Assembly (NCBI GenBank): GCA_965223385.1 | Contig: CBDCWR010000007.1 | Span: 2,498,301-2,562,300, forward strand | Source of the DNA: Candidatus Multivoraceae bacterium | GTDB lineage: Bacteria; Acidobacteriota; Thermoanaerobaculia; Multivoradales; Multivoraceae | Length of the DNA: 64,000 nt | Direction: 5' to 3' | Shown: piece by piece, positions 61,067-63,269 of the stretch | Layout of the letters: each line of letters opens with the position of its first letter | Position numbering within the stretch: position 1 is the first letter of the stretch | The notes under the pieces: model-generated | What the model was told of the DNA's origin: nothing | What the model saw: the letters and a program-made list of their open reading frames with translations, nothing else | Databases searched by the model: none | Made by a program: the position numbers and the translations under genes

Positions 61067-62542
61067 TCAATCAACGTGGAGCCCGATCCGGGCCGAGAGG
61101 TCGGTGCGCAGGATGCCCTCGGGATCGACCTGGGACCTGAGCCTGCGCAGCGTCGCCAGCGCGTCGTCGCCGATCATGCGGCGGAAGTCCTGCGGCCGCA
61201 GGACCTGGTCCTTCGCGGGATAGAACTTGCCCCCCGCGTCGAGGACGAGGTCGTTGAACTCGTGGCACATCTTCCAGAGCTCGGCGCGATTCGAGGCCGT
61301 GACCGGGTAGTCGAGCGCCATGCTGTAGCCGTCGAGCCCGTGACTCAGCAGGAAGTCGTCGGGCCGGTAGCGCTTCAGCACGCCGAGATAGCTCATGATG
61401 CCGCGCTTGCGCGAGGTGTCGAAGATCTCGCGGAACACGTCGCCAGCGGATTCCGCGGGCACGAACGGCTGGTACTGGATGAAGCCGCCGGGCTGGTAGG
61501 CGTAGCGGAAGCCGGGCATCTGGTCGAGGAGGAAGTGGAAGGCGGCGTGCGGCTGGTAGTAGGTCTTCCCGGAGGCGATCCTCGACGCGACCCACTTGAC
61601 GGTGTTCGTGAGCCAGACGCCGGCGTTGTGCTTGTACAGGATGCCGAGGACGACTGGGACGAGCGGCGCCGGCACGCCAAGCATCGAGCTCGGGAGCTCC
61701 TGCGCGTCGACCGCAAGCGTCGCCCCGCCCTCCGGGTCATTCCCTTCTGCCGTGTAGTCCGCCCAGTGCATCTGGCTGCGGCCCTTGGCCCGGGCGCCGA
61801 TGCAGTCGCACCAGCCGACGTAGTAGTCGTGGTCGGGAGCGTCCTCGAACGACCGGATTGCGCTGGCCAGATCGGGCTCGACCCACTCCTTGACCCAGAG
61901 CCGGCCGCCGTAGACGCGCTCGAGCTGCAGACGGATGCGCGTGAAGCACCCCAGCATTCCGAAGCCGCCAATCGCGGCGTGGAAGAGCTCGGAGTTCTCG
62001 CTGCGTGAGAGCGTCAGGAGCTCTCCTGACGGCGTCACGAGATCGACCTCCTGAATCCAGTCGCCCAGACCGCCCACCTTGTAGTGGTTCTTGCCGTGGA
62101 CGTTCATCGCAGCCGCGGCTCCCAGCGTGGGCCAGCTGGTGCCGGTCGTGACCGGTGGCCACCAGCCGTCCGGCAGGACGTGGCGCCACATCTCGTCGAT
62201 CGACAGGCCGGGCTCGCAGTCGAGGATGCCGTTCTCCGGGTCCCAGGAGAGCACCCGCTTCATGCGCCGCATGTCGAGGAGCAGGTTGCCGGTGTTCATG
62301 GCGGCGTCGCCGTAGCTGCGACCGTGGCCGCGCATGGACACGGGCACTCCCTCTTCCGAGGCGCGGCGGAAGAGCGTGGCCACCTCCTCGGCCGACCGTG
62401 GCTCTGCGAAGGCCGCCTCTCCGCGCAGCGCAGCGCCGAAGCCGTCGAAGACACGGCGCGGAAGCGTGCGCAGCGACGGGCCGGCGGGGGCCGGTTGGGC
62501 CGCAGTCGCGGGCTGGGTGGCGGTGGGGGCGGAGGTGGTCAC
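61067..62542 (-). CDS. DprE1-like FAD-dependent oxidoreductase (decaprenylphosphoryl-beta-D-ribose 2'-oxidase homolog).
   Basis: MRGHGRSYGDAA, VHGKNHY, GGLGDWIQEVDLVTPSGE and LFHAAIGGFGMLG align with M. tuberculosis DprE1 (ARGLGRSYGD, IHGKNHH, GSFGNHVRSMDLLTADGE, LFWATVGGNGLTG). The C-terminus GGKFYPAKD..VDP compares with GGRLYTAKD..VDP. Confidence 0.7.
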   Translation of the reverse strand: MTTSAPTATQPATAAQPAPAGPSLRTLPRRVFDGFGAALRGEAAFAEPRSAEEVATLFRRASEEGVPVSMRGHGRSYGDAAMNTGNLLLDMRRMKRVLSWDPENGILDCEPGLSIDEMWRHVLPDGWWPPVTTGTSWPTLGAAAAMNVHGKNHYKVGGLGDWIQEVDLVTPSGELLTLSRSENSELFHAAIGGFGMLGCFTRIRLQLERVYGGRLWVKEWVEPDLASAIRSFEDAPDHDYYVGWCDCIGARAKGRSQMHWADYTAEGNDPEGGATLAVDAQELPSSMLGVPAPLVPVVLGILYKHNAGVWLTNTVKWVASRIASGKTYYQPHAAFHFLLDQMPGFRYAYQPGGFIQYQPFVPAESAGDVFREIFDTSRKRGIMSYLGVLKRYRPDDFLLSHGLDGYSMALDYPVTASNRAELWKMCHEFNDLVLDAGGKFYPAKDQVLRPQDFRRMIGDDALATLRRLRSQVDPEGILRTDLSARIGLHVD

Positions 62543-62546
62543 GGGG

Positions 62547-63269
62547 TCAGATGTTGGTCTTGCGGAAGATGAACGACGGGACGCAGCGGATGATCGTCAT
62601 GATGGGCCACCAGATGAGCGGCACGTAGCCCGAGCCGGTGCCTCTGCGCGCGAGCTCGAGCACGCCTTCCGCGGCCTGGTCTGCGCTGATCATGAACGGC
62701 ATCTTCATGCCTTCGGTCATGGGAGTCTCCACGGGGCCCGGCTTCACGGTCACCACGTGCACGCCGTAGCGGTGGATGCGATTCCGCAGCGCCTCGAGGT
62801 ACGTGATGAGCCCGCCCTTGCTGGCGGTGTACACGGGGGAGCCCCTTCGGCCGCGGTCGCCAGCGACGCTCGCGATGCCGACGATGGTTCCGGAGCGCTT
62901 CGCCTCCATGTGTGCCGCGGCCAGGTTGAGCCACGCAACGGCGCCCACGAGGTTCACCTCGAGCTGCGCGCGGTCCTTCTCGAAGTTGTACTCGTGCTCT
63001 TCGATCTCGGGCATCACGCCCGCGCTGTAGACGATCAGGTCGATCGCGCCGAGCTCCTCGTGGATGCGGTCGAAGAGCAGCGGTGCCGCGTCGTAGTCCG
63101 TGACGTCGTGCACGTAGGCGGAGATGTTCTCGGACGAAGAGGCGAGCTCGTCGAGCTCGTCCCGGCGGCGCGCGAGGGCGGCCACCTTCGTTCCCTGCCG
63201 GGCGAGCTTTTGGGCAAGAGTCGCGCCGATGCCGCTCGAAGCACCGACCACGATCGCAGTCGACCACAT
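62547..63269 (-). CDS. DprE2-like short-chain dehydrogenase/reductase.
   Basis: SDR Rossmann motif GASSGIG and YxxxK (YTASK). The C-terminal tail ..IRCVPSFIFRKTNI matches DprE2 ..[14 protein letters not shown]. Located 5 bp upstream of the DprE1-like gene. Confidence 0.7.
   Translation of the reverse strand: MWSTAIVVGASSGIGATLAQKLARQGTKVAALARRRDELDELASSSENISAYVHDVTDYDAAPLLFDRIHEELGAIDLIVYSAGVMPEIEEHEYNFEKDRAQLEVNLVGAVAWLNLAAAHMEAKRSGTIVGIASVAGDRGRRGSPVYTASKGGLITYLEALRNRIHRYGVHVVTVKPGPVETPMTEGMKMPFMISADQAAEGVLELARRGTGSGYVPLIWWPIMTIIRCVPSFIFRKTNI

Follow-up and report, generated by a model that had tools for sequence, protein, structure and literature searches.

D-arabinofuranose (Araf) glycans are best known from the cell wall of mycobacteria, where the oxidase DprE1 is a leading drug target, and to our knowledge they were thought rare outside the mycobacteria until recently. 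The mycobacterial DprE1 and DprE2 (Rv3790 and Rv3791) form a couple that oxidises and then reduces, and are encoded side by side. Here we describe a pair of this kind, a flavin adenine dinucleotide (FAD) oxidase and a short-chain dehydrogenase/reductase (SDR), encoded by adjacent genes in a 64-kb stretch of DNA from a Candidatus Multivoraceae bacterium of the Acidobacteriota (assembly GCA_965223385.1, contig CBDCWR010000007.1, positions 2,498,301 to 2,562,300 of the forward strand), hereafter the window. Judged by its sequence, the pair is a genuine but divergent DprE1/DprE2-type couple and no orthologue of the characterised enzymes, and we lean towards the view that it is a polyprenyl-phospho-ribose 2'-epimerase whose partner genes lie unlinked from it.

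In Gram-negative bacteria, DprE1/DprE2 homologues belong to three-component pentofuranose systems that make Araf-containing glycans; such a lipid-linked glycosylation system consists of a polyprenyl-phosphate phosphoribosyltransferase (PPPRS), a PRPP-dependent enzyme of the UbiA family, a flippase (of GtrA, MATE or SMR type) and a GT-C glycosyltransferase, with an optional epimerase (Kelly et al. 2024, PMC11127046). The five proteobacterial plasmid loci that we opened, from Rhizobium (two), Azospirillum, Salipiger and Sinorhizobium, all carry a contiguous cluster in the order UbiA-family gene, GtrA, FAD oxidase, SDR. The UbiA gene is HAD-fused where it was scanned (the rhizobial locus L088), and the clusters are followed downstream by multi-transmembrane (multi-TM) hypothetical proteins, glycosyltransferases or nodABC. 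Genes PsPA7_6245-6249 of Pseudomonas aeruginosa have the same order as the plasmid clusters and are experimentally needed for pilin arabinosylation. The original prediction, made from the letters of the window alone, took this pathway to be known mainly from Corynebacterineae and from Pseudomonas pilin glycosylation, a view that is outdated: UbiA-GtrA-FAD-SDR clusters are common on plasmids of Proteobacteria, and Araf-containing Gram-negative glycans are on record (PMC11127046). Our literature search on DprE1 homologues of Chloroflexi, Planctomycetes, Myxococcota and Acidobacteria returned nothing relevant, and a paper on the ebo operon names DPPR synthase only in passing.

One of the plasmid clusters deserves a separate mention. 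On plasmid NZ_CP034911.1 of the Sesbania symbiont Sinorhizobium alkalisoli (L091, 5416-15266), the UbiA-GtrA-FAD-SDR genes stand beside ACP, KAS and nodABC, an arrangement that would fit Azorhizobium noe-type arabinosylation of Nod factors.

Homology and fold of the oxidase and the reductase

The window oxidase is recognised by Pfam through an FAD_binding_4 domain only (1.5e-29), and its relationship to DprE1 is seen over the whole protein. Against NCBIfam, the DprE1 model NF053785 matches it at 3.5e-78, with residues 30-488 on profile positions 3-449 of 449, and the next-best family follows at 3.6e-17; the motifs GRSYGD, HGKNHY, YPAKD and VDP, from which the relationship had originally been proposed, are all present and, given this gap, are not there by chance. 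Among PDB sequences the DprE1 proteins of M. smegmatis (4aut, 5e-49) and M. tuberculosis come out on top, at about 1e-48 over residues 34-487, and other flavoenzymes match at 1.7e-15 or worse and over the FAD domain only. An AlphaFold2 model (mean pLDDT 91), for which 50 homologues were used, retrieved DprE1 structures as its top 49 Foldseek matches in the PDB (TM-score 0.75-0.91), followed by galactonolactone dehydrogenase at 1e-23. Profile, PDB and model searches agree on a two-domain fold over the full length, with a PCMH-type FAD-binding domain and the substrate-binding domain of DprE1.

The active site is preserved as well. The residues that published DprE1 structures and mutagenesis mark as catalytic or as lining the pocket are, in M. 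tuberculosis numbering, Y60, H132, K134, Q334, Q336, K367, D389 and K418. In an alignment with M. smegmatis DprE1, the counterparts of all eight are invariant, both in the window oxidase and in 50 of 50 members of its clade. Asn385 is replaced by Ser, and Cys387, the covalent target of benzothiazinones, by Ala, the latter in all 50 clade members too. Cys387 is not known to be needed for DprE1 catalysis, and the five proteobacterial enzymes from complete clusters share both substitutions (Ser or Thr for Asn385, Ala for Cys387).

The second protein is a classical SDR (Pfam adh_short, 5e-44) with a GASSGIG cofactor motif and a YTASK catalytic motif of the YxxxK type. Its best NCBIfam model is PRK07102 (NF005489), and the DprE2 model NF053786 ranks only fifth. 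The SDR of the rhizobial UbiA-GtrA-FAD-SDR cluster behaves likewise: its 369 bits on PRK07102 exceed the cut-off, its DprE2 score is 185, and PRK07102 is therefore the proteobacterial equivalent of DprE2; with this, the ranking of the window SDR no longer counts against the original prediction. Generic SDR structure alignments end near residue 190, and the alignment with the DprE2 chain of PDB entry 21gq (21gq_C; chain A of this entry is DprE1) runs the full length, the DprE2 tail pairing with the window tail GYVPLIWWPIMTIIRCVPSFIFRKT to the last residues. The family pattern W..M..IR.IP..FRK is present in the window SDR, and this type of tail is kept in clade members of several phyla, in PRK07102-type and proteobacterial SDRs, and in DprE2. 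The DprE2-type tail had thus been spotted correctly, although the string quoted for it, IPRSIFRK, is DprE2's own sequence; the window reads VPSFIFRK, aligned column for column. In sum, the DprE1 and DprE2 families are the best matches of the two proteins, as had been proposed, rather than an alditol oxidase and an unrelated reductase, and both active site and adjacency are kept.

These comparisons bear on one alternative, in which the pair would oxidise and reduce a soluble small molecule, a sugar alcohol or a lactone, in catabolism or detoxification. The surroundings are rich in hydrolase genes, a VOC gene overlaps the oxidase stop, and the oxidase has some similarity to sugar-lactone and alditol-type oxidases. 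However, that similarity is confined to the FAD-binding domain and is about 60 orders of magnitude weaker than the match to DprE1, and the SDR keeps the tail of lipid-linked systems. Because even relatives 79-80% identical do not keep the hydrolase and VOC genes beside the pair, we consider a soluble substrate improbable.

Two branches of the family and a conserved pairing

A whole-library HMMER search for the oxidase returned 976 representative clusters at E<=1e-30, of which the best 150 were compared. They fall into two sets, one 31-47% identical to the window protein and the other 40-55% identical to the proteobacterial and mycobacterial enzymes, and a neighbour-joining tree with 100 bootstrap replicates places its deepest split between these two, here called branches B and A respectively, in 100 of 100 replicates. 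On the A side are M. smegmatis DprE1 and the oxidases that belong to proteobacterial UbiA-GtrA-FAD-SDR clusters, on the B side the window oxidase and every locus in which the SDR gene precedes the FAD gene. In the loci examined, gene order by itself tells the branches apart, SDR-FAD being the mark of B and FAD-SDR that of A.

Branch B, to which roughly half of the 150 best representative clusters belong, is far from rare. Scanning one genome per species yielded at least 568 relatives confirmed by tblastn, and the best 80 of them are 43-79% identical to the window oxidase. The closest, at 79%, is a metagenome-assembled genome (MAG) labelled Acidobacteriota, and the labels among the best 80 also include Myxococcota, Sumerlaeota, Planctomycetota, Chloroflexota, Armatimonadota, Eisenbacteria and others. 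Branch B pairs are also carried by cultured organisms such as Chthonomonas, Anaerolinea and Polyangiaceae. A contig with an oxidase 54% identical to that of the window (L012, CALQBK020000003.1) was deposited as a 'Bifidobacterium breve' MAG; its context and similarity suggest that it was mis-binned or mislabelled.

We examined two sets of branch B loci: 86 of the window clade (the best 80 from the genome scan and 6 from exact look-ups), in which all open reading frames (ORFs) were called and clustered, and 80 more distant ones from a metagenome search that started from divergent branch B representatives. An SDR gene lies directly upstream of the oxidase gene, on the same strand, in 73 of the former, the 13 exceptions being five contig edges, one frameshifted SDR, one displaced SDR and six loci without any. 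It does so in 69 of the latter, where nine more are contig edges. Counting only loci with room for an upstream gene, the pair is retained in 142 of 152, across some ten phyla. It could still be asked whether the two genes stand together by chance, or as a decaying remnant without joint function, and the partner genes missing from the vicinity are the one observation in favour. Against this stand the constancy of order and strand just described, two intact ORFs, invariant catalytic residues and a junction of 4 nt. The conservation data exclude chance adjacency, to which we give practically no credence.

Partner genes and the likely substrate

The clearest pointer to the substrate comes from within branch B. 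One of its clades (100/100 bootstrap), represented by L099-L114 and L179, carries a UbiA gene of about 300 codons directly upstream of the SDR gene and on the same strand, in 12 of 12 metagenome loci with room for it and in L179. The UbiA proteins match decaprenyl-phosphate phosphoribosyltransferase models: one reaches 241 bits against a cut-off of 207, and the others scored stay just short of theirs (224-226 bits against 234). In an independently retrieved locus of this PPPRS-SDR-FAD type the called genes overlap or abut (UbiA 8392-9279, SDR 9276-10001, FAD 10001-11392) and are preceded by a gene for an NAD-dependent sugar epimerase/dehydratase. These operons resemble the window in their branch, in their SDR-FAD order and in a DprE1 score below the threshold (283 bits, against 264 for the window), and differ from the window and its own clade in having the translationally coupled PPPRS gene upstream, often after a sugar epimerase/dehydratase gene. 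Their oxidase is 38-44% identical to that of the window.

Phylogenetic bracketing therefore points to ribose: branch A is linked to PPPRS in five of five plasmid loci and in P. aeruginosa, and branch B in the sister clade. Since both sides of the deepest split have members coupled to PPPRS, and the catalytic pocket is unchanged, epimerisation of polyprenyl-phospho-ribose at C2' is the most economical reading of branch B. The window pair would then be a cytoplasmic, membrane-associated couple in which the FAD oxidase, by analogy with DprE1, oxidises the 2'-hydroxyl of polyprenyl-phospho-beta-D-ribofuranose to a 2'-keto intermediate, and the tightly coupled SDR, using NAD(P)H, reduces this from the other side to polyprenyl-phospho-D-arabinofuranose, a donor that would serve extracytoplasmic GT-C glycosyltransferases. 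The genes for PPPRS, flippase and glycosyltransferase would lie elsewhere in the genome, the pair being unlinked from them in most branch B lineages.

In spite of these similarities, the window pair differs from the described systems in the following points, which, gene order apart, weigh against its being an Araf-donor epimerase: (i) On the tree it is separated by the deepest split from the mycobacterial enzyme and the Gram-negative Araf clusters alike. (ii) Both proteins score below the curated NCBIfam cut-offs, at about half their value for the mycobacterial families: the oxidase has 263.8 bits on NF053785, whose equivalog cut-off is 500, and the SDR 198.3 bits on PRK07102 (cut-off 267) and 129.5 on DprE2 (cut-off 250). 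(iii) Identity to the characterised enzymes is low (27-37% for the two proteins): the oxidase shares 29% of its residues with M. smegmatis DprE1 and 29-32% with the proteobacterial enzymes, and the SDR 27% with mycobacterial DprE2, whereas mycobacterial and proteobacterial oxidases share 36-41% with each other. (iv) The oxidase is some 30 residues longer than DprE1 and, in the window clade, Tyr314 is mostly replaced by His (in some members by Ala or Asn) and Phe369 by Tyr or His. (v) The SDR gene comes first, in contrast to Mycobacterium and to the contiguous FAD-SDR order of the plasmid clusters, and no arabinosyltransferase gene adjoins the pair. (vi) Neither the 64-kb window nor the 86 clade loci (up to 10 kb from the pair) yielded a PPPRS, a GtrA or a multi-TM GT-C-like gene in phmmer searches with rhizobial seeds, and a PPPRS profile hidden Markov model run at E<=10 had no match in either. 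(vii) None of the larger ORFs of the window, all annotated with Pfam, is a gene of glycan synthesis; they encode esterases, amidases, fumarase, a TonB-dependent receptor, transporters and regulators, among other proteins, and multi-TM proteins are limited to an FtsX/MacB permease and an SSF transporter. (viii) Apart from the SDR, no neighbour is conserved across phyla among the 86 loci.

Of these points the second needs a comment. The rhizobial oxidase of L088, which stands in a complete UbiA-GtrA-FAD-SDR cluster, likewise misses the NF053785 cut-off (404 bits against 500), and for this reason we read that cut-off as marking actinobacterial orthologues and not the activity. On the other side of the comparison, the pair shares with mycobacterial DprE1/DprE2 the adjacent couple, the fold, the catalytic Lys, His, Gln and Tyr residues and the SDR tail, and with the Gram-negative Araf clusters a Gram-negative host, the variants at positions 385 and 387 and a reductase of the PRK07102 type.

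Several neighbours were considered as pathway genes and set aside. ABC ATPase, Ser/Thr kinase, FHA, CpXC, histidine kinase and GGDEF genes reflect synteny within Chloroflexota. Multi-TM neighbours within 3 kb, found in 21 of the 86 loci, are EamA, ABC-3, TrkH, Wzy_C or unassigned proteins, none of them conserved; neighbours of the Wzy_C, TMEM260-like and EamA types turn up sporadically and are restricted to single lineages. The sole GT-C-like neighbour seen is a 947-aa TMEM260_N/DUF2723 protein (GT-C fold) in two Chloroflexota-type loci, where it lies upstream of the pair together with a 365-aa hypothetical protein, a 490-aa hypothetical protein lying downstream (L095/L096, 2892-11015); apart from one further match 8.8 kb away it does not recur, and we rejected it as a conserved partner. 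In five Myxococcota-like MAG loci (L003, 5854-11437; L005, 7187-11419; L006, 7095-11458; L008; L009) the pair ends a longer run of genes on the same strand, in the order PnbB-like (PF16155), a hypothetical protein of about 230 aa, a membrane protein with an HTTM domain, which is related to vitamin K-dependent carboxylase, SDR and FAD oxidase. L003 and L008 have one or two further hypotheticals of about 390 aa between HTTM and SDR, and L003 and L005 have MbnB/DUF692 and HvfC genes further upstream. L001 has an MqnA-like gene upstream of its pair. A general link with vitamin K or HTTM was nonetheless rejected: the HTTM set occurs in five close loci and the MqnA-like gene in one, and neither is found in the window.

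These recurring contexts speak for another reading, in which the couple would carry out the same oxidation and reduction on another polyprenyl-phosphate-linked or lipid-anchored sugar, or would yield a pentofuranose other than arabinose, and branch B outside the PPPRS clade would have a new function. Also in favour of this reading, the pair is orphaned in 86 of 86 window-clade loci and in most other branch B loci, it stands on a deep separate branch, both proteins score below threshold, and the oxidase has its insertion and its altered Tyr314 and Phe369 positions. However, the residues known in DprE1 to contact ribose and FAD, and those of catalysis, are all invariant, the PPPRS-linked clade lies in the same branch and nearer to the window than any branch A enzyme, and the alternative contexts are restricted to single lineages. 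We judge another lipid-linked substrate to be unlikely, though a serious contender; it is kept under consideration because of the lack of linkage in the 86 loci, the Tyr314 and Phe369 substitutions and the lineage-specific neighbours. Our preference stays with epimerisation of polyprenyl-phospho-ribose by a pair with unlinked partners. The original prediction had gone further and implied synthesis of an Araf donor: its DprE1/DprE2-like couple holds, and the donor does not follow from the present data, with scores below the cut-offs, a separate deep branch and no local PPPRS, flippase or GT-C gene. The absence of the other pathway genes, which that prediction had named as evidence against itself, is indeed what we find locally, in the window and the 86 clade loci.

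Setting of the pair in the window and significance of the branch

The two genes lie exactly where the original prediction had placed them, adjacent, SDR first and both on the minus strand (Table 1).

Table 1. The pair, its motifs and its immediate neighbours, in window positions
Feature	Position	Strand	Remarks
DprE2-like SDR	62547-63269	(-)	240 aa; ATG start preceded by AAGG; first gene of the pair
SDR C-terminal tail, DprE2-type	~62550-62624	(-)	residues ~216-240; hydrophobic/basic
DprE1-like FAD oxidase	61067-62542	(-)	491 aa; second gene of the pair
Oxidase motif GHGRSYGD	62306-62323 (GRSYGD)	(-)	residues 72-79
Oxidase motif VHGKNHY	62090-62098 (His149/Lys151)	(-)	residues 148-154
Oxidase motif FYPAKD	61211-61213 (catalytic Lys444)	(-)	residues 440-445
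Oxidase motif VDPEG		(-)	residues 472-476
VOC/glyoxalase-family gene	60664-61074	(-)	136 aa; TTG start; Pfam Glyoxalase 6e-15
Divergent intergenic region	63270-63420		151 nt; between the pair and the second SDR
Second classical SDR	63421-64000	(+)	divergent; cut by window end; adh_short 3e-47; neighbour only

The sole possible start of the oxidase gene is a GTG located 4 nt past the SDR stop, and on this account translational coupling of the two genes is likely. The VOC gene and the divergent second SDR, both noted from the start, were borne out. The former begins 8 nt inside the end of the oxidase gene and is probably transcribed together with the pair; no VOC homologue recurs beside the pair among the 86 related loci, and it is a mere neighbour, outside the conserved module. 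Neither L002 nor L001, the closest relatives, has kept the second SDR beside its pair. The promoter of the pair is presumed to lie in the intergenic region that separates them; a sigma-70 consensus scan of this region found no site, and a promoter and terminator scan of 60400-64000 gave no usable result.

Elsewhere in the window we observed other features. Secreted-type hydrolases are unusually concentrated, at 49808-51562 (-), 53280-55067 (+), 59094-60542 (-) and 18106-20742 (-), the group comprising two COesterase-family carboxylesterases, an EstD-like alpha/beta hydrolase and a fusion of BamB/PQQ propeller and esterase, and a CarboxypepD_reg-type TonB-dependent receptor (55045-58113) adjoins the hydrolase genes. 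At 25272-32971 (-) a 1930-aa protein combines DUF3686 ('ATPase involved in DNA repair'), DUF7902 and AAA domains; its ORF follows and overlaps one of 639 aa without Pfam match, and the two form a large uncharacterised unit, possibly a defence or repair system. The Peptidase_S74 domain (endosialidase/tail-fibre intramolecular chaperone) is typical of phage tail spikes, and a 277-aa ORF with this domain is found at 7100-7933 (-), in a region that otherwise looks chromosomal.

The basic idea of DprE1/DprE2-like pairs outside the mycobacteria is not new, because automated pipelines already call some relatives of the oxidase 'decaprenylphospho-beta-D-ribofuranose 2-oxidase' and Gram-negative DprE1/DprE2 systems are established. 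What is new is a deep, very widespread and mostly orphan branch of inverted gene order without a characterised member. For annotation, this means that the curated equivalog thresholds miss both branch B and the proteobacterial enzymes; the scope of the NF053785 cut-off and the generic name 'PRK07102 SDR family oxidoreductase' under-describe these proteins. We put forward, as a doubtful proposal, that branch B is a widespread module of lipid-linked sugar epimerases, which would speak either of hidden glycoconjugates with D-Araf or another pentofuranose in many mostly uncultured phyla, or of an orphan form acting on a new lipid-anchored substrate. If branch B acts on polyprenyl-phospho-ribose, lipid-linked Araf donors and Araf glycoconjugates are predicted in many environmental phyla; if it does not, it would offer an example of such a couple taken over for a new lipid-linked substrate.

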